Source of the DNA: an uncultured Pseudomonadota bacterium
GTDB lineage: Bacteria > Bdellovibrionota_B > Oligoflexia > Oligoflexales > CAIYRB01
Direction of reading: 5' to 3'
Length of the DNA: 64,000 nt
Assembly (NCBI GenBank): GCA_903928445.1
Contig: CAIYRB010000101.1
Span: 1,909-65,908, forward strand
The notes below the pieces were generated by a model, which was not told the DNA's origin, ran no database searches, and worked only from the letters and a program-made list of their open reading frames with translations. The position numbers and the translations under genes were made by a program. Shown piece after piece: positions 4,077 through 17,513 of the stretch (the stretch's first letter is position 1; each line of letters begins with the position of its first letter).

Positions 4077-5387
4077 TCACAGAAATATTGCCATATACAA
4101 TGGCATCGAGCTGACGGGGGGTGGGGTACATACATTCTTAGCGGATAACTTAATGGCCTGCTGCACCCCGCACTGGCGCATGACGGCCGTGACCGACTTT
4201 GATTTTGTGTTATCCGACGACTTCACCTCGACGGCCGTGGCCTTTTTCCCATGGCGGATGAAAAAATCAATCTCCATCTTGGCGTCCCGCTCAAAGTAGT
4301 AGAGGTTCTTGCCGGTCTTGGTGAAGATGTCGGCGATGATATTTTCGTACACCGCGCCCTTATAGATGCCGAGATTGCCGTCCATGATCTCCTGAGCCGA
4401 CCCTTCGTCAAGCATCGACACCAGGAGCCCTGTGTCGCGCATATACACCTTAAACACATCGCTTTTTGCGTGCCCCTCAAGGGGTAGCTCTGGTGCCGAT
4501 AGATTGTGGCAAAAATTGATGATGCCAGCGTCCAATAGCCACATGAGACTACCGCCATATTTCCGCGCGCTACCTCCACGTTCGACCAGACTATATTGAA
4601 ACTTCTTGTGCTCCTTAGCCAGATGCCTTGGGATCGATAGGAAACAAGCTCTTGCCTTGGTCTTCTCGTTCCCATCAGCATATTTGGCAATGTCGTCGCT
4701 GTAGTCCCTGACGATGGCTTTCTGCAACTGCAGGACTCGGCCAAAGTGATGGTTCGTTATGAAGTCCTGCACCACTCGCGGCATACCGCCGACGACTACG
4801 TGCTCCTTAAACAACTGCATCATACGTTCGTGCATCGCTGTCGGTACTGGCTGTAGCCGCGTCCAGTAGCCCTTTATATCGTCGATAGACGCGGCACTGA
4901 CGCCGTTCGCCCATAAAAACTCCTCGAAATCCAGTGAGTGCATGTCCACGTGATCGACGTAGCCGACCGGGTAGGATGGCACCTCTTCATAGTGGATGCC
5001 GAGCATCGATCCGGACGCAATTACATCAACGCGGTCGTCCTGAGCGAGGAACTTCAACGCCGTGCGAGCCCGAGGACAGTGTTGAATCTCGTCGAGAAAT
5101 AAAACGGTCTGTCCACGCACGAATTCCGCGCCCGGCAGGCGCAGCGAGATTTGCTTGGTCAGGGTCGTCACATCAAGGTCGCCGTCAAAAATGGCTTTGT
5201 GTGACGGCGTCTCGTCGAAGTTGATTCTTATGTAATGTTGGTAGTGACGCCGTGCAAAGTCGTCGATGGCATAGGTCTTACCGACCTGACGGGCCCCTTT
5301 GACGAGGAGGCACATGCGCCCTTCGCGAGCCCTCCACTCCAGCAGACTTTGGGTGATCTTGCGTCGCAGCATCGGGGTGGATCCCAT
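4077..5387 (-). CDS. AAA+ ATPase with C-terminal DUF4143-type domain (ATP-binding protein)
   Basis: 436 aa. Walker A LLVKGARQVGKTY, Walker B LFLDEIQ. Overall layout matches the AAA_14 + DUF4143 family. The gene and its flanks are visibly more AT-rich than the neighbours. Confidence 0.8.
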   Translation of the reverse strand: MGSTPMLRRKITQSLLEWRAREGRMCLLVKGARQVGKTYAIDDFARRHYQHYIRINFDETPSHKAIFDGDLDVTTLTKQISLRLPGAEFVRGQTVLFLDEIQHCPRARTALKFLAQDDRVDVIASGSMLGIHYEEVPSYPVGYVDHVDMHSLDFEEFLWANGVSAASIDDIKGYWTRLQPVPTAMHERMMQLFKEHVVVGGMPRVVQDFITNHHFGRVLQLQKAIVRDYSDDIAKYADGNEKTKARACFLSIPRHLAKEHKKFQYSLVERGGSARKYGGSLMWLLDAGIINFCHNLSAPELPLEGHAKSDVFKVYMRDTGLLVSMLDEGSAQEIMDGNLGIYKGAVYENIIADIFTKTGKNLYYFERDAKMEIDFFIRHGKKATAVEVKSSDNTKSKSVTAVMRQCGVQQAIKLSAKNVCTPPPVSSMPLYMAIFL

Positions 5388-5618: not shown

Positions 5619-7625
5619 TCAACGATCAGGCTTGCCTGTCTGGTCACCATCGGCCGACCCTTCAATGGCTCGCCACAACCTTGCTTCACTCCAGACCGGA
5701 ATACCCAAAGCCTTCGCCTTTTGCATCTTACTGGACGCTGAGTCCGGCTCATCCGTGATCACCGCATGGGTCGTCTTCGCCACACTCCCCGACAGTCGCC
5801 CCCCCGCAGCTTTAATCGCTTTCTCCACCGTCGCCCGCGGCTGACTGAGTGCACCGGTGATGACAAAGACCTGCCCACTAAGCGGCCCATCACCGGTTGC
5901 CGCCGTCGCCGCTTTGGGTACGACTCCGGCTGCGAATAGATCATCGATCAACGGCCGCTTGACCTCCAGACCCAACACGATCTGCGCCGCCGTCTTCTCC
6001 GCGAACCCATCGATAGCCGCCAGCTGTTCCTGACTCGCCTGTAGGATGGCATCGAGGGTCGGAAACTCCGCCAACAACTTTTCCCACGTCGTTAATCCGC
6101 TCCCTTCGATCCCTAGACCATTCAAAAATTGAGCAAGTGGAAGATGCCGACTCTTCTGAATATTGGCATATAGCTTAGTCGCCATCTTTTCTTTGGTCTG
6201 AGGAATGCGGTAAAAATCCTCGACTTTCAGCCGGTAGAGATCGGCCATGGTGCGCACAAGTCCAAGCTCCATCAACGGGGCCAGACGCTTTTCGCTGAGA
6301 TCCTCGATCTCGGCCGCGCGAATCCAATTGAGCACGGCGCCTAATTGCTGCGCGCTGCAATGGGCCTCATTGGGGCATTTAAGGCGCACATCATCAAACA
6401 CCAGGGCTGCCCCACACGATGGACACGCATCTGGCCAGCGGTACTCACCCTCGGCGGCGTGCACCACCTGCAAAAACTTCGGGATCACTTCGCCAGAGCG
6501 CACGATCTCGACGTCGTCGCCAGCCTTCAGATTATAGGCTTTGACGTGCGCCGCGTTGTGCAAGGTGACATTGGTGATCGTGGCGCCACTCAAGCTCACT
6601 GGAGCCACGATGGCCACCGGTGTGACGATGCCAAGTCGCGAGGTGGCCCAAGCGACGTCCTGAATCCGCGTCGTCGCGGTCTGCCCTTGCCATTTGAAGG
6701 ACATTTTATAGCGAGGGTGGTGCGAGGTCAGGCCAAGGGCATGCTGGCGGGCGATACTATCGTAGGTGAACACGGCGCCATCGAGCGGGATCTCCCCCTC
6801 AGCCAATAATTCTCGCACCCTTTCGATATACCCACCCACAGCGCTTTGACCGTCTAGCCGCTCCGGCTTTGGCAAGACAAAGCCTCGTGCCGCCAGCCAA
6901 GCAATTTGGTCGGTCTCTGTCTTTAGGCCTAGATCGACCGAAGCACTGCTGACATGGAATGCAAAGAATCCGAAAAACCGCGCCAGGTTTATATGCGACT
7001 TGCGTCCCATGAGACCAGCGACGATATTGCGCGGACTGGTCGGGCGCTCAAGGCCCAACTCCTGCATCGTCTCGGCGAGCTGGATAAACCGACTATCGGT
7101 ACAATATAATTCGCCGCGAATCTCGATGTCGCCGGCAATCCCTGGAAGAGCAGGCAGAGCCTCGGTGACCCAGCGAACCTTAGGCGTCACGTCCTCACCG
7201 ATCACCCCATTACCGCGAGTCTTGGCCATGACCAGCACGCCATCGCGATACAGCAAGCTGATGCTGACGCCGTCGATCTTCAACGTTCCGACCACTGGCT
7301 CGGTACCGACCCATTTCAGCAGTTCGTCCAGATCGTAGGTCTTTTGCAGACTGAGCATCGGCGAGGAGTGAGCGACCTTTGGCAAGTCGGTCGTGAGGTC
7401 AGTACCGACGACCGCCAGCGCCGGGTGCGTCGGCGCGAGCTGCCGCAGCTCGTCTTCGAGTGCATCGAAGGCCGCATCGCTGATTTCTGGATGGCCGGCA
7501 TAATAGAGCGCTTTGTGGTGCAGAATCCGCTCGGCTAAATCAGCGACGCGAGCACTGCTATAGGGTTTGGCAAGCATGCGGAATCGAGGGTCCTTTGGCC
7601 TTGGGTGGGACGATCTATGTTTCAT
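5619..7625 (-). CDS. ligA: NAD-dependent DNA ligase
   Basis: 668 aa. Adenylation motif KIDGVS, Zn-finger cysteines (CPSCGA...CPN..C), HhH repeats and a C-terminal BRCT (FVITGAL...). Confidence 0.97.
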   Translation of the reverse strand: MKHRSSHPRPKDPRFRMLAKPYSSARVADLAERILHHKALYYAGHPEISDAAFDALEDELRQLAPTHPALAVVGTDLTTDLPKVAHSSPMLSLQKTYDLDELLKWVGTEPVVGTLKIDGVSISLLYRDGVLVMAKTRGNGVIGEDVTPKVRWVTEALPALPGIAGDIEIRGELYCTDSRFIQLAETMQELGLERPTSPRNIVAGLMGRKSHINLARFFGFFAFHVSSASVDLGLKTETDQIAWLAARGFVLPKPERLDGQSAVGGYIERVRELLAEGEIPLDGAVFTYDSIARQHALGLTSHHPRYKMSFKWQGQTATTRIQDVAWATSRLGIVTPVAIVAPVSLSGATITNVTLHNAAHVKAYNLKAGDDVEIVRSGEVIPKFLQVVHAAEGEYRWPDACPSCGAALVFDDVRLKCPNEAHCSAQQLGAVLNWIRAAEIEDLSEKRLAPLMELGLVRTMADLYRLKVEDFYRIPQTKEKMATKLYANIQKSRHLPLAQFLNGLGIEGSGLTTWEKLLAEFPTLDAILQASQEQLAAIDGFAEKTAAQIVLGLEVKRPLIDDLFAAGVVPKAATAATGDGPLSGQVFVITGALSQPRATVEKAIKAAGGRLSGSVAKTTHAVITDEPDSASSKMQKAKALGIPVWSEARLWRAIEGSADGDQTGKPDR

Positions 7626-7900
7626 GCAGAAAGCTAGTGGCTATTCGGCAAAAATCAAATGCAAAATGACCGCGACTAGGTACAAATCACGGCCTGACGC
7701 CCATTTTTTGACCTTCTGCATACGAAAAGGCAGCGATCGTCTCGACTGGCCCTAAGTACGACCTTTGCCAACCTGGATTGCCCGACCATTTCCCACCATT
7801 ATTACCATCCAACGCACTGTTATCAAACAATAAAATAATTTCAGCTCAGGAGTCGCCGCAGTTTGCCGATGGGGGCCTTAAGCCTTACTAGGAGTTAGCC

Positions 7901-10900
7901 ATGGGTCGCCTCCAACGGTTCAGCCACATCGCCGCCGCATCCCTGCTTTACTTAGCCTCCGCGTCAAGCTTCGCCGGCCCATTTGTCTTCAGCTACGGCG
8001 GCAGACTCGCCAACAGCTCAGATGTCGCGGTCACGGGGCCAGTAAACATCGAACTGAAATTCTTCCGCTCCGCCTCAGGCGGCAACCCGGTTGGCGTCAG
8101 CAATATGTCCTTCAGCAACGTCCCACTTGAAGACGGCGTCTTCCAAGTAGACATCGGCCAATTGACCTCTGCCGAAATGGCACTCGTCTTTGACTCCAGC
8201 CAAGACACCTACGTCGAGATCACCGACAACACCCACAACGTCACCTACCCTCGTCAACACCTCAGCGCGATGCCCTACGCCATGAAAGTGCCAGTCGACG
8301 GCAAAACCTTGGCCTTTGATTCCAGCGGCAACCTCGGCTTATCGCTGAGCAGCTCCCCAGGCACCAACCAATTCGTCACTAAAGACAGCAGCGGCAATTT
8401 GATTTGGGGCACCCCCGCAACCAGTGCGGCGTCCTTGCAAGGCCAAAGCATTAGCGCCACGACACCTGGATCTGGGCAAGTGCTGCAATACGACGGAACC
8501 AAATGGTTGCCGGTAACCCTGGCGACGGTGACCACTGCCAACAACATCAACTCCGGCACCTTGGGGGCGTCTTACGGCGGTACCGGCGTCACTTCGAGCG
8601 CAACCTTTCCGACCGCGGGGGTGATCGTCACCGAGGCGGCCACGGAGACCCTCACCAACAAAACTCTGACGGCGCCTCTGATTAGTTCGATCGTCAATAC
8701 CGGAACCTTGACGTTGCCAAGCTCGACAGACACGCTGGTCGGTCGCAATACCACCGACACCTTGACCAACAAAACGCTGACCAGTCCCATCGTCACTGCG
8801 GGCACAATCACCGGGGCCTCGCTGATTTCCGGATCTACCTCGGTAAACACCAGTGGAACCATCACCGCTGGTGCCATTGCAACCAATGCGGGCCTGACTA
8901 TCAAAGGCAACGGCGCTGCCGCCAACATGCTCACGTTAAACAATGGTGGCAATACCTTCGCCTTGAATTTTAAAGCACCTGACGTTTTGACGGCTTCAGT
9001 AACGTGGGTCTTACCAACAGCGGACGGTAGCGCGGGCCAGTTGCTATCGACTAACGGCGCTGGCTCATTTAGCTGGACAACCGGAGTCGGCGGCGGTACC
9101 GGCGGCGCGTCTGGTGCGGCAGGAGGTGATTTGGTTGGCGCATACCCAAACCCGACACTCGCCACCAGCGGTGTCACAGCAGGCAGTTATACCAAAGTGA
9201 CGGTCGATGCTAAGGGCCGCGTCACTGCTGGTTCTACGCTCGTTGTAGGGGATATTCCGCCGCTTTCCGCTGCGACCATCAGTTCGGGAGTGCTCGGCGT
9301 CGCCAACGGCGGCACTGGCGCCGCCACCATCATCAACAACGGCGTCGTCATCGGAGCTGGCGCCGGTGCTCTTTCAGGCGCCACGGGCACTAACGGTCAA
9401 GTCATGACGGTCAATTCGTCTAACCAACCAATCTTTAGCTCCGTGAATCTTGGCACCGCTGCCGCAGTTTCTGGCACTCTCGCCGTCGCCAACGGCGGTA
9501 CTGGAGTTACGACATCGACTGGTACGGGCAGCCTAGTCCTCTCAAACAGCCCAACACTTGTCACACCATCACTCGGCACTCCTACAAGCGGTGTCGCGAC
9601 CAACTTAACCGGGCTTCCCTTGACCACTGGAGTTACGGGCACGCTTGCAGTAGCCAACGGCGGTACTGGTACGACCGCGACGCCGGCTAACGGTCAGTTG
9701 CATATCGGTAACGGCTCCGGTTTCGCCCTGGCGACTTTGACTAGCGGTACTGGCATCAACGTGGTCAACACGTCTGGAGCAATCACGGTCAACGCGACGG
9801 CAGATGCTTCGACTAAAGTGACAAAAACAGGCGACACGATGACTGGTACCTTGAATCTACCAGCCAATGGGCTAAATGCCGGTACCAATCAATTGGTGCT
9901 ATCTGGCGGCAATATGGGGATCGGGACCACAACTCCGAATGCCAAGCTGCAAATCAGCACCACAAGCGCAGCGCCAGGTGTTGTGGTCGTGGCCGCGGCC
10001 GGGCAGACTGCGGACCTGCTCGAGACGCTGAACTCCGCCGGTACGGTCATCGCGCGCGTGACAGCAGTCGGCGAATTCAGCAATCCCAATCCAGGAGGAG
10101 GAAGCGGCGGACAGAACGAGCGTTTCGGCGTGGGTGCTGGCAGCAACATGATCAATGGCGTCGGCAACACCCTGATCGGTAACTCGGCAGGGAACTCTGT
10201 GACCACTGGCAGCAGCAACACGCTGATCGGGTCTTCGGCAGCCTCGACATTAACGAGCGGAAGCAGCAACGCCGTGATTGGGACCTCTGCGGGCGGTGGC
10301 GTTACCGGCAACTACAATACAATCATAGGGACCCTCGCCGACGCCCCAGGCCTGAACGGCTGCCTCGCGATCGGTTGGGGCTCTACTTGCACGGCTAATA
10401 ACCAGATGGTGACTGGCTCAGGAGGTATCAGCGTGAATGATATTTACTGGGGGAACGGCGTCGTCAATTCGGCGGCATCGACCCCGACCTTGAACGCCAC
10501 GGGCGGATCGGGCGCGGACACAGCCGGCGGGGGACTGATCCTTGCGGGGGGTAAGAGCACCGGCACCGCCGCCGGCGGGCCCTTGGTTTTTAAAACTTCA
10601 CCAGCGGGCGGTGCGGGCAGCAGTCCTAACGGCCTCGTCGAAGCTATGCGTATCACCGCGGCTGGCAACGTCGGCATAGGCACTACCACTCCGGCAGCGA
10701 GACTTGCTGTATACGCCTCCGCGGGGTCTGAAATGTTGCACCTTGTCGCCCCGGCCTCCTCGGCGGCGATCTTCCGTCTCGGTACAAATACAATAGCTAA
10801 CTCACTGCAGCTCACCTTTAATTACATCGGGAATGCCAATGCCAATAACTATGCCTCCTTAGGTGTCCAAGGCTTATCTACGCTATATTTAGTAGGTACT

Positions 10901-11719
10901 GGTAACGTCGGGATTGGGACCTCCAGCCCCGCTGCGCCCCTTCACGTCAGTGGGGCATCTGCCATATTCGGCACAGGTGAGGGTGCGGCGACGCCTGGTG
11001 CGACAACCATTCGCGGAGCCAATGCGGCGGGAACTGACAAATTTGGTGCGAACCTCACCATCCAAGCTAGCAACGGTACTGGTACTGGCGGCTCGGGTGC
11101 GATCAACTTCCAGACAGCTACTGCTGCCGCCACGGGTACCGCGGCTGACACCTTGGCCACAGCGATGACCATCGCTAGTAGCGGCAACGTCGGGATTGGC
11201 ACAACAGCGCCAACCCACACCCTAGAAGTTGCCGGTACCGCAGCCAATACCGGCGGTGGCTCCTGGCTCACCATTTCTGACATCCGCATGAAAACGATCG
11301 AAGGCGACTACGAGTACGGCCTAGACGAGATCAAAAAACTCCACACGGTCCGGTTTAAATACAAGGATGGCAACGCCCTCAAGCTGCCCACCGACCAGGA
11401 ACACACCGGCTTCATCGCCCAGGAAGTCCAGGAGGTGATCCCCGACGCCGTCATCCATAGGCCCGACGGCTACCTGGAGTTAAACGTGGATCCTATTCAT
11501 TGGGCCACGGTGAACGCAGTCCAGCAACTCGCGGCCGAGAACGAACGTTTAAAGGCCGATTCTGCCATCCTGAAGGCGCATTCTGACAAGGCGGACGCGC
11601 GCGCAGACAAAGCCGACGCGCGCGCAGACAAGGCGGAGGCCGAGGCCGCGCAGCTCAAAGCTGCGCTATGCAGTAAATTTTCTGATTTGCCGCTGTGCGC
11701 CTCCAAAATAGGCGAGTAA
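7901..11719 (+). CDS. Secreted phage-type trimeric fibre / adhesin with C-terminal peptidase S74 intramolecular-chaperone domain (expressed copy)
   Basis: 1272-aa ORF with AGGAG 8 nt upstream. Sec signal peptide [25 protein letters not shown]|G. G/T/S/A/N-rich fibre repeats: TLTNKTLT(A/S)P x2, VANGGTG x3, GN(V/M)GIGT(T/S)xP x4 at nt 9908, 10664, 10901 and 11183. The C-terminus [13 protein letters not shown]...LHTVRFKYK...[17 protein letters not shown] is the classic S74 auto-cleaving chaperone module, followed by a coiled coil and a C-x8-C tail. Confidence 0.92.
11585..11626 (+). repeat. 21-nt in-frame tandem repeat (DKADARA x2, degenerate third unit follows) in the post-chaperone coiled coil
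   Basis: gacaaggcggacgcgcgcgca / gacaaagccgacgcgcgcgca, followed by gacaaggcggaggcc... Confidence 0.85.
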
Positions 11720-11915
11720 CCGGGGGTCATGGGGTCGGGCACTCCCAGGAGCGCTCTAAATCTACATCAAGCGCCTCATCGAGCTTGAACATACTGAATG
11801 CACTGAAGTTTTTTTGATCCAGCTGAGACCGTCGACAGCCGGAGCCTAAAGCACCTCCGGGATTTCGCCGATGGGACACGACCACTCCGCCCACTAATCC
11901 ATTGAGGTTATAGAC

Positions 11916-12305
11916 ATGGGAGCCACCGCCAAGCCAGCCCCCGTGCGATACACCGACGGCGTCGCATTTGGCGAGCGGACCGGGAAGCTTAATGATTGGC
12001 GCGAACTGCTTTGCCTCGGCCTGGAGCCGGACACCATGGGCGGGGGATTTTTTAACGCGAAAAAAGATATCCTACTGAACTTTGTTCAGCGCGATCCTGC
12101 CTATCACATGATGACGTTTGTTGGGCCAGATCGGTGCGTGAATCGGTTCGTTTCAGGGCCAAGGAATCACTATTTCCTCGCGGATGGGGACCCGGATCCG
12201 AACCTGGTCTTGTTTCCGTTTCTCGCGCTTGATTGGCACCTAGTCTTTGAAGATTCCATCTGCAAGACCTTTGCCATGATCCAGGATATCAAAAATCGTC
12301 GCTAG
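11916..12305 (+). CDS. Family-X protein copy 1 (129 aa, unknown function; paralogue of 12814 and 17514)
   Basis: Starts MGATAKPAP..YTDGVAF. GAGG-N8-ATG arrangement is conserved in all copies. High similarity to X2/X3 along the whole length. Confidence 0.6.
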   Translation: MGATAKPAPVRYTDGVAFGERTGKLNDWRELLCLGLEPDTMGGGFFNAKKDILLNFVQRDPAYHMMTFVGPDRCVNRFVSGPRNHYFLADGDPDPNLVLFPFLALDWHLVFEDSICKTFAMIQDIKNRR

Positions 12306-12556
12306 ACCAAGGACCAACCGCTCAGCATCGCGCCAGTTCTCATCGAGCTTTGAGCTGTGGGCGGAACTCATGCCTTGATATATTCTGTCGCACGAGTGTC
12401 GGCCGTTCGGCGACGCAGCTCCCTTGACACGAGATATTCGAACACCGCGTACGCGTCAAAGTGATCCGTTGCCGTATACAAAGCACACGACGCTGGCAAT
12501 TCGCGTTGCTTCTCTTCGCTGAAGAGTGGTGATGCCGCCGCATCCACTTGCTCCAC
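12240..12556 (-). pseudogene. Family-Y gene copy 1, decayed (start codon lost, 1-nt frameshift)
   Basis: Homologous to Y2/Y3 (PLFSEEKQRELPASCALYTATDHFDAYAVFEYLVSREL...). ATG is replaced by CGG just after an in-frame TAG. A 1-nt deletion near 12370 splits the reading frame (TEYIKA* then MSSAHSSKLDENW...GIFKD* in another frame). Confidence 0.75.
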
Positions 12557-12813
12557 CTGGGTCCGCTAGTTTCTTGGGGTCGGGCACTTCTTGCAACTCA
12601 TTGAATTTTCTGGGACCGAATCAACTCGCGGAAAGATAGGCAACGACTTGAACATCGCATGCCAGCCAGCTACGCTCCCCTACGCCAGAATAGCCTGAAA
12701 ACATTAATATCCAAGGTCCTAGCATGACCAACATCGGCCGCTGGCTAAAGAACGCTTGAGATTCCACCGATAGTTATCTGTCAGTCCACTTTCTATCACG
12801 TGAGGATATCGAC

Positions 12814-13212
12814 GTGGGAGCCACCGCCAAGCCAAGCCCGGATTTCTTCACCGATGGCGTCGCGTTTACAGAGCGGACCGGAAAGTTAAATCGTTGGCAT
12901 GAACTGCTCTGCCTCGGCCTGGAGCCAGATACCATGTCGGGTGGTTTTTCCAGCGAGAAGGCAGATATTCTCCTGAACTTTGTCCGGCGCGATCCTGCTT
13001 ATCATATCATCACGTTTGCATCGGATCGGTATATGAATCGGTTCGTGGCAGGAAGAAACACAGTATATTTTCTCGCGGATGGAGACGCCGATCCAAACTT
13101 AGTCTGCAACCCATTTCTCGCGCCTGATTGGCATCTAGTCTTGGAAGATACGATCGGCAAGACTCTTGCCATGCTCAAGGACATTAAAAATCGTCGCCAG
13201 ACCAAGGTCTAA
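12814..13212 (+). CDS. Family-X protein copy 2 (132 aa, unknown function)
   Basis: GTG start with GAGG 8 nt upstream. V/MGATAKPSPDFFTDGVAFTERTGKLN... Same length as X3. An in-frame TGA 24 codons upstream argues it is a separate gene rather than a fibre extension. Confidence 0.65.
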   Translation: MGATAKPSPDFFTDGVAFTERTGKLNRWHELLCLGLEPDTMSGGFSSEKADILLNFVRRDPAYHIITFASDRYMNRFVAGRNTVYFLADGDADPNLVCNPFLAPDWHLVLEDTIGKTLAMLKDIKNRRQTKV

Positions 13213-13482
13213 GCGCTCGGCCTGCTTCCAATCGCGATCAAGCTTGGAGTTATGAGCGGTGCTCATGCTTTCGTACAATTCCAACGCACGAGCGTCCACC
13301 GTGCGGCGGCTCAGTTCCCTTGATAATAAATATTCGAACACAGCATAGGCGTCAAAGTGATCAGCCAGTGTGTACAACCCACACTCCGATGGTAATTCTC
13401 GCTTCGGCTCATCGCTGAAGATCGGTACCTGTATTGCCTTGCCGCTGCGCGTGACTCCGACATGCTGCACCGCTTGGGTCAT
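13135..13482 (-). CDS. Family-Y protein copy 2 (115 aa, unknown function), convergent with and overlapping X2 by 78 nt
   Basis: Strong SD (AGGAGGattccATG). MTQAVQHVGVTRSGKA...HFDAYAVFEYLLSRELSRR... Paralogue of 17835..18182. Confidence 0.7.
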   Translation of the reverse strand: MTQAVQHVGVTRSGKAIQVPIFSDEPKRELPSECGLYTLADHFDAYAVFEYLLSRELSRRTVDARALELYESMSTAHNSKLDRDWKQAERLDLGLATIFNVLEHGKSLADRIFQD

Positions 13483-13528
13483 GGAATCCTCCTATAGTCA
13501 TCGCGACGTCTTTTATCAATCGTGTGCC

Positions 13529-14302
13529 ATGGCGTCCAACGACATGTACCTGATTTTCGGGCATGTCGGGATTGGGACAACCTCCCCTGCCGGCACCCTC
13601 GATGTCGCCGGCACGGGTATGTTCACCGGCACCCTTTACGTCAACAACAACCGTGCCGGAGTCGGTGCCGGGTCGACCGGTACGGTCCAGATCGGCGACG
13701 GCACCATCAGTAAAACCTACGGAACCTCCTTCCTATTCAATTCAAGCCTCGTTCCCCTCTCTGATAATGTTTATACCTTGGGAAGCAGTAGTCAGCGTTG
13801 GAGCGTAGTGTACGCCGCCAACGGCACCATCCAGACCTCGGACTCCCGCCTCAAGCAAGACATTCACGAGTCTGATTTGGGCCTCGACTTCATCATGGAC
13901 CTCCGGCCGGTGAGTTACCGATGGACCAGCGGTCCAGATAAGGGCTTCCACTATGGTCTGATCGCCCAAGAAGCACGGGCGGCAATCCTCGCCACCAAGT
14001 TACGCCTTGGACTAAACCAAGATCCTAATGCGGACCTCATAGTCAGCCGCGACGCTGCTAGCGACCGCTACGGACTCAGCTACACTGAGCTAATCGCGCC
14101 CATCATCCGGGCGGTACAAGAGCAAGAGCACAAGATTGACAGCTTGACCGATGCCTTGTCCGAGATCGAGCACCTCAAGGCTCGCGCCGAAGCGGCGGAG
14201 GCCGAAGCTGCGACCCAAAAGGCCGAGACCGCGCAGATGAAGGCTGCATTTTGCACCAAGTTCTCGGAACTGGCGATGTGCGCATCTAATCCGACAAGAT
14301 AG
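13529..14302 (+). CDS. Short fibre distal module: junction motif + alternative tip + S74 chaperone + coiled coil + C-x8-C tail (257 aa, no signal peptide)
   Basis: MASNDMYLIFGHVGIGTTSPAGTLDVAG... then YTLGSSSQRWSVVYA, TSDSRLKQDI (S74 cleavage motif), FHYGLIAQE, a coiled coil, and ...AAFCTKFSELAMCASNPTR, which parallels the end of the 1272-aa gene. The computed ORF reaches 13370, but homology and the divergent Y2 gene favour ATG 13529. The SD is weak, so it may be a silent cassette rather than an expressed gene. Confidence 0.7.
   Translation: MASNDMYLIFGHVGIGTTSPAGTLDVAGTGMFTGTLYVNNNRAGVGAGSTGTVQIGDGTISKTYGTSFLFNSSLVPLSDNVYTLGSSSQRWSVVYAANGTIQTSDSRLKQDIHESDLGLDFIMDLRPVSYRWTSGPDKGFHYGLIAQEARAAILATKLRLGLNQDPNADLIVSRDAASDRYGLSYTELIAPIIRAVQEQEHKIDSLTDALSEIEHLKARAEAAEAEAATQKAETAQMKAAFCTKFSELAMCASNPTR
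13562..13578 (+). repeat. Fibre junction repeat CATGTCGGGATTGGGAC, copy a
   Basis: Exact 17-mer shared with 14952, 15926 and 17108. Its 14-nt core gtcgggattgggac is identical to 10907-10920 in the expressed gene. Confidence 0.9.
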
Positions 14303-14304
14303 AA

Positions 14305-14604
14305 CTATGACGCTTGGCCCAGTTGCTTTAGCTTTTCGCGAATGGAACGGAGTTTAGGCTCTAGGTCACCTCGCTCGAATCCGTTGGGAAAAAGGATGAA
14401 TTCCGGCTTGACCCCAAGAGCCTCCGCGAGAAGGATGGCCCGATCCTCGCCTAACCGGGAACGCCCACTCTCGATATTGGAGATATTCGAGACGGCGATA
14501 CCGGTAATCTTCGCGAGCAGTGCCTGGGTCCAACCCTTTTTGGTACGGAGCTCCTTGACAACTTGTCCCGGGGTCAAGACCGCTCTCGGTGTACGCTTCC
14601 TCAT
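14305..14604 (-). CDS. XRE-family HTH antitoxin (HigA-like)
   Basis: 99 aa. HTH_3 core KGWTQALLAKITGIAVSNISNIESGR. 4-nt overlap with the upstream RelE-like toxin gene. Confidence 0.85.
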   Translation of the reverse strand: MRKRTPRAVLTPGQVVKELRTKKGWTQALLAKITGIAVSNISNIESGRSRLGEDRAILLAEALGVKPEFILFPNGFERGDLEPKLRSIREKLKQLGQAS

Positions 14605-14894
14605 AACTTGCTCCTATAATCATGGGGAGTTATTCGCGAGACGTTTACGACCTCGACCTTGCCTCCTCGATCGACCTGATAAATCACACGCCATTTTAGA
14701 CTCAACCTCGACGAGCGAAATTTTGACAACTGGCCGTGGAGCTTTTCATCGTGGTAACCCTTAAATTCCCGAAGAATAAAGGCGCCGTGCTCCTCGACGA
14801 GTCGAGCCCAAATCTCATAGGAGACAAGGATTTCCTTTGGCGCCTTAGCTAGCTCCTTCTGAGCAGACTTGGATTCGATGATTTCGGCTTTCAT
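14601..14894 (-). CDS. RelE/ParE-superfamily toxin (HigB-like; toxin-first gene order)
   Basis: MKAEIIESKSAQKEL...LHGQLSKFRSSRLSLKWRVIYQVDRGGKVEVVNVSRITPHDY is the typical RelE-fold pattern. GGAG 6 nt upstream of ATG 14894 (ORF extends to 14921). Confidence 0.85.
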   Translation of the reverse strand: MKAEIIESKSAQKELAKAPKEILVSYEIWARLVEEHGAFILREFKGYHDEKLHGQLSKFRSSRLSLKWRVIYQVDRGGKVEVVNVSRITPHDYRSKL

Positions 14895-14950
14895 TCTTGC
14901 TCCCTGCAAGTTATCGTGCACAATAACTTATACTTAACTATAAGTCAAAG
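14895..14950 (-). promoter_or_regulatory. Putative promoter/operator of the RelE-HTH module
   Basis: On the - strand, TTGACT-N17-TATTGT. Palindrome aagttat-N9-ataactt overlaps the -10 region and 5' UTR, typical of a TA autoregulatory operator. The -35 lies 3 nt from the fibre junction repeat at 14952. Confidence 0.5.
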
Positions 14951-14951
14951 A

Positions 14952-15167
14952 CATGTCGGGATTGGGACTACGTCGCCGGTATCCAAGCTCGATATTAACG
15001 GCGGTATCTCCGCAGGCTCCTATGCTGGGATCAATTCTGCCCCGACTAATCAGCGGCTGAGTCCTTGCAACTCAAGACTTTCCTATGCGGCCAGTTCCCT
15101 GTCGCGCCGATGTGTCACCCATGAGGCGGAGGCGCTTACCGGATTAGACAGCTTTCGGCTGCCTTAA
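14952..15167 (+). pseudogene. Fibre cassette fragment b (junction motif + about 35 aa of fibre sequence, then unrelated read-through)
   Basis: Begins exactly with CATGTCGGGATTGGGAC. Encodes HVGIGTTSPVSKLDINGGISAGSYAGINSAPTN. Fibre-like sequence ends near 15055. No signal peptide and no S74 domain. Confidence 0.7.
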
Positions 15168-15224
15168 ATCTTGGATAGAATCACCTAGCAGCCCAAGCCG
15201 CCTACTGTCATTTACCGAGGACGG

Positions 15225-15320
15225 ATGACTGAAAAGGTTCATGTTATCAGCAGCGTTGAGAGACGTCGTCGCTTCACCGATGAAAAGAAGTTAGGCACCT
15301 TGCCGATTGAGTCGATTTGA
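15225..15320 (+). mobile_element. Remnant of an IS66-family tnpA (5' stub, 31 codons)
   Basis: MTEKVHVISSVERRRRFTDEKKLGTLPIESI* matches the characteristic N-terminus (..GVERRRRWS.EEK..IV.E) of IS66 TnpA-type HTH proteins. No remainder of the IS is present. Confidence 0.4.
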
Positions 15321-15366
15321 TGCACGATGTCTTGTAGTGTCTAACACTACAGAAGAGGTCCGAAAA

Positions 15367-15660
15367 TTGAAAGAACTCGGGTTCGACTGGGAGCAGTGGA
15401 ATATACAAAAAAACGAGTTAAAGCATGGTGTCTCTCGTTTAGAGGCTGAGAGTGTGTTTTTCGACCCCCAATATAGATTATTTTCCGATATCGTGCATTC
15501 CACCCCGAGAGAAGCGCGTTATGTTTTGTTCGGAAAAAGTATCGAAAATAGGATTCTGATGGTTGGTTTTACCCTCAGGTCTCAGAAGGCCCGCATCATC
15601 ACGGCGCGGACCGCTTCAAAAAAGGAGAGGACGATCTATGCCAGTGAAGAAAAAAAATAA
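15367..15660 (+). CDS. brnT: BrnT-family toxin (DUF497)
   Basis: FDWEQWNIQKNELKHGVSRLEAESVFFDP...ILMVGFTLRSQKARIITARTASKKERTIY is the canonical BrnT pattern. Probable TTG start at 15367 with AGAGG upstream (the computed ORF starts at 15307). Confidence 0.85.
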   Translation: MKELGFDWEQWNIQKNELKHGVSRLEAESVFFDPQYRLFSDIVHSTPREARYVLFGKSIENRILMVGFTLRSQKARIITARTASKKERTIYASEEKK

Positions 15661-15910
15661 GAGAAGGGAAATAGGTGATTACGATGATCTGGACACTTCA
15701 CAATTTATTGATGCAGCGAGGCCTTTGAAACTTGAATCTTTGGGACTGAAGTTGCCAGAAGCGTCACCAACGCAGGTAGTCTCAATAAGGTTGCCGACAG
15801 CTTTGATTAACGAGATTAAAGCCCTAGGTTCCCAGGATGATGTTCCGTATCAAGCTCTCATAAAACTGATTCTGGCCAATGCGGTCAAAAAAATGAAAAA
15901 AAGTGCATAA
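15638..15910 (+). CDS. brnA: BrnA-family antitoxin
   Basis: MPVKKKNKRREIGDYDD...VVSIRLPTALINEIKALGSQDDVPYQALIKLILANAV is the ribbon-helix-helix BrnA pattern. Overlaps the brnT 3' end. Confidence 0.82.
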   Translation: MPVKKKNKRREIGDYDDLDTSQFIDAARPLKLESLGLKLPEASPTQVVSIRLPTALINEIKALGSQDDVPYQALIKLILANAVKKMKKSA

Positions 15911-15919
15911 TCTCATTAG

Positions 15920-16204
15920 AGTGGGCATGTCGGGATTGGGACTACGGCGCCGGCGGGTAAGCTAGACGTCGAAGGATCTGGCGGAGTTATATTAAACGCC
16001 GGCAACGTCGGGATTGGCACAACGGCCCCGGTCGTTGCCCTCCAAGTGATCGGTGACATTCGAGTTGGTACCAGCGGTACCAACGGTTGCCTCCAGAAAT
16101 TCAGTGGCTTAGCTTTGACCGGTACCTGCTCCTCGGATGAGCGCCTGAAGACCAATATCAGACCTCTCGGGCGTGAGCCCTTCGGGCGGCTTCCTGACTC
16201 ATAA
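15920..16204 (+). pseudogene. Fibre cassette fragment c (start-less open frame: two junction motifs + small Cys-containing tip + first 13 aa of S74 domain)
   Basis: Open frame with no start codon. [83 protein letters not shown], then breaks off. Exact 17-mer at 15926-15942 and a second motif at 16001-16021. Confidence 0.75.
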
Positions 16205-16207
16205 TCC

Positions 16208-16516
16208 CTAGGCGGACTTTTCCTTGACGACCCGCGCTGGTTTCTTAGGCGGTGACAGTTCCCTCAATTGGTAAGATACCTTTCCCCTGCGTACCGAGAC
16301 CTCTAGGCGATACCCATCAAATTCTAGGACTTGGTTGTCACTGCGTTCGCAGACATCATCAAACGTGACACCTTGAATATCTCCCGTGGGACTGAAAAAA
16401 CCTACCCCTTCGCCACTACTTGCCTGCGTGGCATCGCCAAATGGTCCGGGTTGAAAATCCAAATGTAAGGCACCGGACCCGGCCATGGGAATGTAGCTGA
16501 CCTTAGCCTTTCGCAT
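16208..16516 (-). CDS. Small protein, DUF2283-like (putative antitoxin partner); assignment tentative
   Basis: MRKAKVSYIPMAGSGALHLDF...GDIQGVTFDDV resembles the DUF2283 beta-rich pattern. Translationally coupled (14-nt overlap) to the upstream gene. The start was chosen at an internal Met (ORF reaches 16603). Confidence 0.5.
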   Translation of the reverse strand: MRKAKVSYIPMAGSGALHLDFQPGPFGDATQASSGEGVGFFSPTGDIQGVTFDDVCERSDNQVLEFDGYRLEVSVRRGKVSYQLRELSPPKKPARVVKEKSA

Positions 16517-16844
16517 ATCGAATTCTCCGTAATTTTTTGTGCTTTGCGCGGTGGGTGGCACCGGTCGGGTAGGCGGTAACAAAGAAGCACCCATCGGGAA
16601 CACGCTTGACTATGACGACCATGTAGTGTCGGGCGTTGAGCCGGTAGAATAAGTGAAAAACATGCGTCTTTCGCTCCTCAAATATGTCAGATGGATCCCG
16701 CAGCACGCGCTCAATGAGCTCAAGAACCATTTCCTCCGGGAAAAGAGGAAAATGACGCTCTATCGTGTGAGCTATGGCCTCGGCCAGAACCACAACCCGA
16801 TCACCCAGCACGTCGGTGATGACGGCAGCTATCCTTTTGCTCAT
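16503..16844 (-). CDS. Small toxin-like protein (barnase/RelE-fold nuclease-like, PBECR/DUF4258-type); assignment tentative
   Basis: MSKRIAAVITDV...AIAHTIERHFPLFPEEMVLELIERVLRDPSDIF...YMVVIVKRVPDGCFFVTAYP has the H-x3-RH motif plus the 'xxVTAYP' ending typical of these small nuclease toxins. Paired with a small downstream gene. Confidence 0.45.
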   Translation of the reverse strand: MSKRIAAVITDVLGDRVVVLAEAIAHTIERHFPLFPEEMVLELIERVLRDPSDIFEERKTHVFHLFYRLNARHYMVVIVKRVPDGCFFVTAYPTGATHRAKHKKLRRIRYAKG

Positions 16845-17104
16845 AAAAAGAATCAACCTAGTCAAGAATCAGGGGAAAAAACACCTTAGCGCCCGTCAGG
16901 AAATAACTTGCCCTTGGCAAAAATATGCCTGCCTACAGTTTAATGCAAGTCAATGCAAGGGCGCCGCTCATTCCGCGACTCCAGCGTTTCTCAACACGGG
17001 AGAGCACCACGGAGTACTACATAGTAGCTGATATTGTTAGATATTTGCGACATGTAGGGGCATAAGTCGGAATCGCCCCTCGAAGCTTAAGCAGATCTGT
17101 CGGA

Positions 17105-17236
17105 GGGCATGTCGGGATTGGGACAACGTCACCATCTTACATGCTGCATGTCAGCGGCTCCGTCGCCGGCGTAGGCGCATACAACGCGCTGTCTGATATT
17201 CGCTATAAAAAGGATGTGCAATCCCGGCGTTGCTAA
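17105..17236 (+). pseudogene. Fibre cassette fragment d (junction motif + short tip + start of S74 domain, nonsense-interrupted; degenerate S74/3'UTR homology continues to about 17440)
   Basis: GHVGIGTTSPSYMLHVSGSVAGVGAYNALSDIRYKKDVQSRRC*. Exact 17-mer at 17108-17124. The downstream sequence aligns with the 3' flank of the expressed gene (…ccgtcgacag…, 11.83 kb versus 17.43 kb). Confidence 0.7.
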
Positions 17237-17513
17237 TCGATCAATGGCCTCAGCCTCCAGGCCAACGCCGTCAACACCCATGCTCGCGACCGTCTTTATA
17301 AACTCATCGAATGTTGGGATCACCACCTGAAACTTGGGAGCCACTTTGGCTCTATGTAAGGATCCACGCCGAGCTAACTCATCAGTATGACGTTCGGAAA
17401 ACGTTGAATTGTACGATTCATCCGAGGCCGTCGACAGTCGCAGGCTCAAGAATGCATGGGATTCCACCGAGAGATGCCTATCAGGTCATTTTCTTTCCTG
17501 TAAGGGTATTGAC

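Follow-up and report, generated by a model that had tools for sequence, protein, structure and literature searches.

A convergent pair of small bacterial genes, X and Y, whose C-termini are encoded by the same DNA: dual coding and a possible mutual-exclusion module

Overlapping genes on opposite strands are found in several classes of bacterial systems. The pair considered here, named X and Y, lies in the window, a stretch of 64,000 nucleotides (nt) from an uncultured bacterium (contig CAIYRB010000101.1, positions 1,909 to 65,908). Known convergent-promoter switches include the excludons of Listeria and prgQ/prgX of Enterococcus pCF10. Among type I toxin-antitoxin systems, a convergent 3′ overlap occurs in txpA/RatA and bsrG/SR4 of Bacillus subtilis and in par of Enterococcus faecalis. 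X-Y resembles these type I loci in its convergent 3′ overlap, which there measures from tens to ~120 nt, and in being a small, multi-copy, dispensable module. Type I toxins are, however, short hydrophobic peptides and their antitoxins are non-coding RNAs, whereas X and Y are conserved, soluble-looking proteins of 112-133 amino acids (aa) with confident globular models, a negative grand average of hydropathy (−0.04 to −0.52) and a ratio of non-synonymous to synonymous substitution rates (dN/dS) of ~0.2.

Like excludons and convergent-promoter switches (review PMC7154746; ExcludonFinder, PMC12288877), X and Y are neighbours on opposite strands, for which transcriptional interference and, through an RNA duplex, mutually exclusive expression are predicted; the transcripts necessarily overlap, as the coding sequences themselves do so by 66-78 nt in ~90 modules. 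Unlike in excludons, the shared segment of X-Y encodes both C-termini in codon register, with constraint on either frame; the whole gene-pair family keeps this arrangement down to 30% identity, and the unit is compact (~0.8 kb), multi-copy and apparently mobile. Novel antisense overlapping open reading frames (ORFs) have been detected by RNA sequencing and ribosome profiling in one strain of Escherichia coli O157:H7 (PMC9927249). These cases and X-Y have in common the coding capacity of both strands of one segment, but X and Y are independently conserved genes that share only their ends, and their dual selection is quantified over dozens of copies. X and Y are almost certainly both real genes and their overlap dual-coding. 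What the pair does is a separate matter, for which a mutual-exclusion mechanism together with an addiction-like role is favoured here, with a probability of roughly 40%.

X (129-133 aa) is encoded on the + strand and Y (112-115 aa) on the − strand. Three copies of a unit of ~900 nt, each with X and Y in this orientation, stand downstream of a fibre gene and are followed by a deleted remnant; the repeat was confirmed by the families D1-D4 and D6, which are spaced 895-898 and 4700 nt start to start. The ribosome-binding sites (RBS) have the form GAGG/AGGG-N8-(A/G)TG for X and AGGAGG-N5-ATG for Y. The parts of the modules are the following.

11916-12305, + strand: X copy 1, 129 aa, intact; an orphan with a decayed Y partner
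12243-12541, − strand: decayed Y copy 1, frameshifted; two tblastn pieces in different frames (residues 16-68 and 69-115)
12814-13212, + strand: X copy 2, 132 aa, GTG start, RBS GAGG-N8
13135-13482, − strand: Y copy 2, 115 aa, ATG start, RBS AGGAGG-N5
13135-13212, both strands: dual-coding overlap of copy 2, 78 nt; X codons 108-132 plus stop, Y codons 91-115 plus stop
17514-17912, + strand: X copy 3, 132 aa from the GTG at 17514
17835-18182, − strand: Y copy 3, 115 aa; 78-nt overlap with X copy 3 at 17835-17912
18351-18446, + strand: X stub of 32 N-terminal codons, joined in frame to a piece of fibre leader with its start at 18228
18450-18553, − strand: internal Y fragment, about residues 54-88, abutting a MazF-like gene

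The start and residues 1-15 of the decayed Y copy 1 were not recovered by tblastn. The X stub, which belongs to a leader-X fusion ORF at 18228-18467, has had its X promoter deleted, and the internal Y fragment at ~18450-18553 reads ELSRGSADTGASDIYDRMSFG and matches by eye residues ~54-88 of the Y homologue P0059. Together they are the leftovers of an internal deletion across the overlap.

Nearly everything that the initial annotation had described here was reproduced: the ORF coordinates of the X and Y copies, the form of their RBS, the overlap of exactly 78 nt with coinciding codon boundaries in copies 2 and 3, and a hand alignment of the two overlaps, whose recount again gave 11 nucleotide differences. 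Of the codons affected, 4 are synonymous and 6 non-synonymous in the X frame, as against 3 and 7 in the Y frame. The remnants that it listed exist with other extents, the X stub having 32 aa and not 38, the decayed Y lying at 12243-12541 and the Y fragment at ~18450-18553. The gap from the Y start to the ATG of the next fibre leader, given as 46 nt, measures 40 nt for copy 2 and 45 nt for copy 3. A position directly 3′ of a fibre unit had been assigned to every module and holds only for copy 1, which follows the complete fibre gene; copy 2 comes after copy 1, and copy 3 after a truncated fibre stub.

Protein searches gave 41 X clusters and 51 Y clusters, a profile search gave 85 X clusters, and in an exhaustive search the Y family amounted to 138 representatives at 50% identity; every named member is annotated as hypothetical. 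The ~90 modules were located in 16 genome and 78 metagenome loci, and the relatives belong to metagenome-assembled genomes (MAGs) labelled "Proteobacteria bacterium" from lake sediment, plus one Oligoflexales MAG. The overlap is always in phase 0, with X codon position 1 opposite Y position 3 and X position 3 opposite Y position 1, also in subfamilies at 30-40% protein identity. In subfamilies B and C, whose proteins share 30-40% identity with those of the window, the genes still converge and overlap by 69-78 nt in phase 0. Of the ~80 modules on other contigs that remain after de-duplication, 55 have both frames intact. Copies 2 and 3 of the window are 86% identical within the overlap, as compared to 75-77% in the non-overlapping parts. 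An overlap open in two frames to this extent is far beyond chance, and it is ancient.

The codon positions carry the evidence for selection. Nucleotide diversity at positions 1, 2 and 3, computed on 43 unique window-type modules, is distributed as follows.

X-only part, X frame: 0.18, 0.15 and 0.40
Y-only part, Y frame: 0.23, 0.19 and 0.40
Overlap, X frame: 0.22, 0.04 and 0.17

Wobble diversity falls within the overlap from 0.40 to 0.17 in the X frame and to 0.22 in the Y frame (Mann-Whitney p = 4e-6 and 4e-5). Outside it, X has a dN/dS of 0.18 and Y one of 0.23 (Nei-Gojobori), over 90-107 non-overlapping codons per gene, and by the same method the synonymous rate dS drops inside it from ~1.0 to 0.32 in the X frame and 0.41 in the Y frame. 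The X stop position is likewise maintained, because Y uses at that site the less-used Leu codons TTA/CTA in 36 of 38 cases, as compared to 27% elsewhere in X and Y genes. The pairing of antisense mRNAs needs no given sequence and the constraint is codon-periodic; it is therefore exerted at the protein level in both frames. X and Y are under purifying selection, and the overlap is constrained in both frames. The earlier opinion that neither frame is a shadow ORF and that both look translated agrees with dN/dS, wobble diversity and stop-codon conservation, and the comparison of dN/dS inside and outside the overlap over many homologues, which had been proposed as a check, found constraint in both frames.

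The center of the overlap contains a conserved palindrome, GGCAAGACTCTTGCC, at 13156-13170 (GGCAAG-ACT-CTTGCC), which encodes the same GK(T/S)LA peptide in X and Y. Over 43 copies it is the most palindromic 15-mer of the module, with a mean of 4.3 of 6 pairs versus 1.5 +/- 0.8 (rank 1 of 654). The tails differ in charge, being basic in X and acidic in Y, and the hydropathy of paired residues is anticorrelated (r = −0.86), a relation that stems largely from the genetic code itself.

Some relatives depart from the shared segment and serve as natural controls. At L021 (3758-4492) the segment has been tandemly duplicated, so that X ends at 4150 and the Y stop codon is at 4154-4156, 3 nt apart; each gene keeps its own tail, homologous to the single shared segment of L009. 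In the Oligoflexales MAG (L016, 3077-4324), Y is placed between two tail-less X paralogues of 99 and 100 aa whose first 35 residues are identical. One of them is divergent from Y and the other convergent with a 6-nt overlap, and both stop exactly where the overlap would start. At the other extreme are X read-through variants of 170-172 aa, which have no stop at the usual place and continue in an open frame over 189-195 nt on the strand opposite an intact Y (L006, L015, L037, L038, L040, L069, L070 and L071). The X tail looks like a lineage-specific extension that arose by read-through into the antisense of the C-terminal helix of Y and was later fixed.

Conservation of the module begins and ends at promoter-like elements. 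When 42 unique modules were aligned with their flanks, it extended from ~70 nt upstream of X to ~65 nt upstream of Y, that is, from element to element over ~0.8 kb. Upstream of X, the motif match is to the sigma-28 pattern, with a −35 of T(T/A)AAG, a −10 of (G)CCGATA(A) and a spacer of ~16 nt. The consensus of attack-phase promoters in Bdellovibrio bacteriovorus is TTAAG-N16-CCGATA (PMC3627812), and the fliC promoter of Pseudomonas aeruginosa has TCTAAAG and GCCGATAA (PMC12784957). The elements of the window are listed below.

11847-11873, + strand: putative promoter of X copy 1, TAAAG-N16-(G)CCGATG, sigma-28/FliA-like, from a regular-expression scan
12746-12772, + strand: putative promoter of X copy 2, TAAAG-N16-CCGATA, sigma-28/FliA-like; the conserved block starts here
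17446-17472, + strand: promoter region of X copy 3, TCAAG-N16-CCGAGA, with a degenerate −10-like element, read directly
13510-13546, − strand: promoter-like element of Y copy 2, box CATGTCGTTGGAC at 13546-13534; outer boundary of module conservation
18233-18245, − strand: box of Y copy 3, exact CATGTCGTTGGAC match

The relaxed sigma-28-like pattern is found in 58 of 83 upstream regions of X, in 1 of 69 of Y and in 1.5% of random windows; for the strict published consensus the figures are 13 of 83, 0 of 69 and 0.2%. Its distance to the X start is fixed at 67-68 nt in subfamily A and 48-51 nt in subfamily B, while in subfamily C the motif upstream of X is TCAGA-N15-CCGATA. A sigma-54 reading of the same block was rejected, its spacing being off by one. 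The relaxed pattern has 7 matches in the window versus 0.8 in shuffles, among them TAAAG-N16-GCCGATA at 49750-49724 (− strand), upstream of a histidine kinase/response regulator operon. The sigma-28-like motif TCAGG-N15-GCCGATG lies at 7846-7871, 30 nt upstream of the main fibre gene.

The element of Y copy 2 consists of a −35-like TTGGAC (13539-13534), an 18-nt spacer and a −10-like TAAAAG (13515-13510); across the family it reads CATGTCGTTGGAC, 18 nt and then TAAAGA-like hexamers, and it resembles a weak sigma-70-like or other promoter. The box is present in 48 of 69 upstream regions of Y, in none of 83 of X and in 0.8% of the background, and it has exactly two perfect matches in the window (13534-13546 and 18233-18245). 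Homology between modules stops precisely at this box, which also occurs in four of six stand-alone modules (described below). In copy 2 the element coincides in part with the opening codons (MASNDM) of the fibre leader ORF downstream of it, ATG GCG TCC AAC GAC ATG being the reverse complement of the box. On the + strand the box reads GTCCAACGACATG; it and the fibre motif CATGTCGGGATTGGGAC, which comes 15 nt later, make up an imperfect inverted repeat (13534-13578). The inverted arm CGACAT(G) is found in 29 of 48 modules, mostly 16-18 nt from the box, and three of these are not beside a fibre leader; the repeat could be an operator or a recombination-prone homology.

Terminator-like sites showed no excess over shuffled sequence, with none in or beside the overlap and no consistent position. 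Rfam gave no match, and no significant RNA fold was found around the overlap (z = −0.6 and −1.1).

As in the first reading of the window, where no family had been recognised for either protein, neither X nor Y from three subfamilies has a match in Pfam, NCBIfam, PADLOC or PHROGs, and 97 diverse Y relatives have none in Pfam. Profile searches of PDB sequences with X and Y returned nothing below E = 0.1, and tblastn searches of plasmids with Y and of phages with X gave no match. The AlphaFold model of Y has a mean predicted local distance difference test score (pLDDT) of 89.6 and a predicted template-modelling (TM) score of 0.85, with a predicted N-terminal beta-hairpin followed by five helices. 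That of X (pLDDT 83) has a predicted alpha/beta core at ~11-98 and a long C-terminal helix at 106-130, which is the overlap tail. The Foldseek comparison of these models with the PDB, a check already suggested, gave best E-values of 0.3 and 2.4 for the two models with TM-scores below 0.4, hence no meaningful match; X against BFVD found only weak matches to uncharacterised phage proteins (E ~0.1, TM 0.45). On these searches and models, X and Y would be two new protein families without detectable fold relatives. A RelE/ParE idea for X, based on a superficially similar order of secondary structures, was rejected as no such Foldseek match appeared. For Y, an AbrB/MazE-like hairpin (TRSGKAIQVP resembles GNSxAVRIP by eye) was not adopted, there being no profile match. 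Inspection of the sequences showed no evident signal peptide or hydrophobic segment in X or Y.

Look-ups of six diverged X proteins led to stand-alone pairs, with X of 129-131 aa, Y of 112-113 aa and overlaps of 66-72 nt. No fibre gene was called within the 6-10 kb fetched on either side of them, at five unrelated sites.

L099: flanked by DUF4442 and an ABC transporter
L103 and L108, same site: flanked by a Cys/Met PLP enzyme and PRK
L104: flanked by CoaE and IucA
L106: flanked by glutamate synthase and a gene of no named family
L110: flanked by AAA_14-DUF4143 and WS_DGAT

The two occupants of the shared site are instructive. L103 (7584-8811) and L108 (5739-7854) have ~95% identical flanking DNA and 96-100% identical flanking proteins, whereas their X proteins are 48.5% and their Y proteins 41.3% identical. 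Each has one intact module, of a different subfamily, and by blastn carries deletion relics of the module of the other; the ancestral site held two tandem modules that have since decayed reciprocally. L108 additionally has a gene for a 208-aa protein and an aldo-keto reductase gene. Its module is 78-80% identical to one on L041, a contig with a window-type module and a fibre-leader fragment, so modules move between contexts. At least 10 modules are present on contigs of one MAG. The stand-alone modules have no terminal inverted repeats and no target-site duplications, and their upstream regions share no non-coding sequence. X-Y is an autonomous module of ~0.8 kb that is not confined to fibre genes; genomes carry many diverged copies of it, and it is gained, lost and decaying between near-identical genomes. 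A gene for an AAA_14 + DUF4143 ATPase occurs a few kb from X-Y in three unrelated contexts, which may be a coincidence.

4077-5387 of the window: AAA_14 + DUF4143 gene
15518-16864 of L099: AAA_14 + DUF4143 gene
4285-5364 of L110: AAA_14 + DUF4143 gene

In the window, the region is bacterial chromosome, with ligA at 5619-7625 and trmD at 20712-21458. Orphan-cassette arrays of the CdiA/Rhs type and silent pilS cassettes consist of a full-length surface-protein gene followed by promoterless or truncated 3′ fragments. The array downstream of the fibre gene is similar in that its fragments start at a motif repeated in the main gene (N/HVGIGTT(T/S)P). It differs from CdiA/Rhs arrays in that the cassettes are distal fibre units with an S74 chaperone domain and not toxin domains, and the intervening genes are toxin-antitoxin pairs and X-Y modules and not immunity genes. 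The fibre gene itself (7901-11719) encodes 1272 aa with a signal-like N-terminus, the motif NVGIGTT.P repeated and a C-terminal Peptidase_S74 domain (E = 1e-14) with SDIRMK for the SDxxxK signature. Its product thereby resembles the MAT fibre family of Bdellovibrio (PMC10769870), which is marked by a signal peptide, repeated loops of the V-G-x-x-x-x-P-x-x-x-L type and such a C-terminal domain.

Between 13523 and 19142, 5′ ends of fibre cassettes alternate with two-gene modules. The cassettes begin at a motif encoding (G)HVGIGTT(S/A)P (13562, 14952, 15926, 17108 and 18264), which recurs inside the main fibre gene at 9911, 10667 and 11186, and only that at 13523-14302 is complete with its S74 domain. 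The order of the modules is X-Y, HTH_3 with a weak ParE-like match, BrnT with CopG, PBECR2 with its partner, X-Y, and PemK with MazE.

14305-14921: HTH_3 and weak ParE-like match (19.3 bits; Pfam cut-off 23)
15307-15910: BrnT and CopG
16208-16865: PBECR2 nuclease and a partner of no family
18554-19142: PemK and MazE

The PBECR2 gene (Barnase/EndoU/RelE-like; 16503-16865, − strand) overlaps a 131-aa ORF without family match (16208-16603, − strand), and the two are probably a further toxin-antitoxin-like pair. The X-Y units of the window occupy the same slots between cassette stubs as four type II toxin-antitoxin pairs, and the whole of 13523-19142 looks like an array of orphan or silent cassettes with addiction modules in between.

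From these elements a mechanism can be proposed. X would be transcribed from a promoter of the sigma-28/FliA class and Y from a separate one with the conserved CATGTCGTTGG box. Because no terminator stands between them, each transcript would run antisense through the other gene, over no less than the 78 nt that they share and probably as far as the promoter on the other side. Colliding polymerases, occluded promoters and an RNA duplex would then make the expression of X and Y mutually antagonistic, in the manner of an excludon or a toggle; should the X promoter depend on sigma-28, X would be expressed while this factor is active and Y while it is not. By position and behaviour the most likely role is that of an antagonistic pair of the toxin-antitoxin or addiction type, and like the toxin-antitoxin neighbours in the same slots it could penalise deletion of the fibre-cassette array. 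An addiction-type pair is favoured because X-Y is autonomous, rich in paralogues, often decayed, variable between strains and alternates with toxin-antitoxin units. It resembles the type II pairs of the window (HTH_3 with the weak ParE-like match, BrnT/BrnA and PemK/MazE) in consisting of two small proteins without evident signal peptides and in its autonomy, paralogue expansion, frequent decay and strain-level presence or absence. Of the three explanations that the initial annotation had offered, an addiction or convergent-transcription module is the best fit, in view of the facing promoter-like elements, the lack of a terminator, autonomy and strain variability. A narrower claim, that X-Y is a new antagonistic or addiction class in which a protein pair is combined with sense-antisense mRNA coupling and the partners depend on different sigma factors, is unlikely as it stands. 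In the extreme version, the two tails made from the same DNA possibly form the X-Y interface, and each mutation there would alter both partners; if so, the co-evolution of specificity would be hard-wired. Support for this version is indirect, from the opposite charges and the anticorrelated hydropathy of the tails. Significant amphipathicity is confined to the window-type Y tail (p = 0.03) and is absent from the X tails, hence it lends the tail-to-tail interface no support.

Several observations weigh against mutual exclusion with an addiction-like role. The promoters of X and Y are putative, being motif matches, and the full sigma-28-like match is absent from four of the six stand-alone modules, so that the sigma-28 assignment seems firm mainly for the array-associated subfamilies. 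The Oligoflexales pair, with its tail-less X and an overlap of 6 nt only, indicates that the protein pair as such can do without the long overlap. No similarity to a toxin, antitoxin or defence protein and no fold match emerged from the libraries and the PDB, and no DNA-binding domain was recognised in X or Y. The few invariant polar residues of Y across the wider family make it unlike an enzyme toxin. Type II toxin-antitoxin genes are co-transcribed and not convergent, whereas X and Y have separate RBS and promoter-like elements on facing strands, and neither has a recognised domain family or fold. Moreover, orphans persist: in the de-duplicated set 15 modules have X intact and Y decayed and ~3 the reverse, an asymmetry inflated by the fact that most loci were fetched with X as query (~8 to 3 in unbiased subsets). 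Persistent orphans fit strict addiction poorly, unless paralogues cross-protect.

It is also conceivable, though somewhat unlikely, that X and Y are the co-expressed subunits of a complex, such as a small defence or abortive-infection system or another heterodimer, and that the overlap is a compaction that followed the loss of the X stop and has no regulatory meaning. X and Y are always linked and diverge together; the tail-less Oligoflexales X with its short overlap suggests that the tail arose by read-through, for which the longer X variants provide examples, and strain-level turnover is typical of defence genes. Two distinct, separately conserved facing promoter-like elements are nevertheless awkward for stoichiometric co-expression, the X stop position and the wobble sites of the X frame are under selection, L021 has retained both tails after its overlap was resolved, and PADLOC gives no match.

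The notion that X, Y or both are accessories of S74-type fibres (an assembly factor, tip cap, receptor mimic or self-protection), one of the original suggestions, has been weakened and is now quite unlikely. The modules of subfamily A typically have a fibre leader ~40-46 nt past the Y start, some follow an S74 domain, and X and the main fibre gene have sigma-28-like motifs in common. The leader adjacency is, however, explained by the Y promoter box, which overlaps the first codons of the leader, and at five sites pairs stand alone with no fibre gene called nearby, one of them in a housekeeping context and closely similar to a pair on a fibre-leader contig. Signal peptides and hydrophobic segments are not evident in X or Y, and S74 fibres have their own intramolecular chaperone (PMC10769870). 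It is scarcely credible that only one frame is a gene and the other a shadow ORF, or that the units are alternative fibre C-termini of the shufflon kind, as had also been proposed. In GC-rich genes the antisense frame in phase 0 is often open by mere chance, and the stub at 18228-18467 joins a fibre leader in frame to the N-terminus of X; but that fusion is a deletion relic without the X promoter, no inverted repeats were found, and X is a stand-alone gene with its own start. Each gene has its own RBS and promoter motifs, dN/dS of 0.18-0.23 over its non-overlapping codons and a confident predicted fold (pLDDT 83 for X and 90 for Y).

Long antisense coding overlaps that are demonstrably constrained in both frames are rare in bacteria and often disputed. 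The X-Y family offers dozens of diverged natural replicates and two natural controls, the overlap resolved by duplication at L021 and the outgroup with a tail-less X; the evolution of dual coding is therefore directly measurable. The ingredients, convergent antisense coupling and small selfish two-gene modules, are known, whereas their combination was not found described in the libraries or papers searched. New in combination are two new families, C-termini shared in codon register, dual purifying selection and a unit that extends from promoter to promoter. If the facing promoters work as predicted, X-Y would be a minimal and portable switch with mutually exclusive states, linked to the sigma-28 programme; in the predator Bdellovibrio this programme governs the attack phase. 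If X-Y is an addiction pair, toxin-antitoxin biology would gain a new architecture together with two new folds, and the pair would help to explain how arrays of alternative fibre cassettes are retained against deletion.

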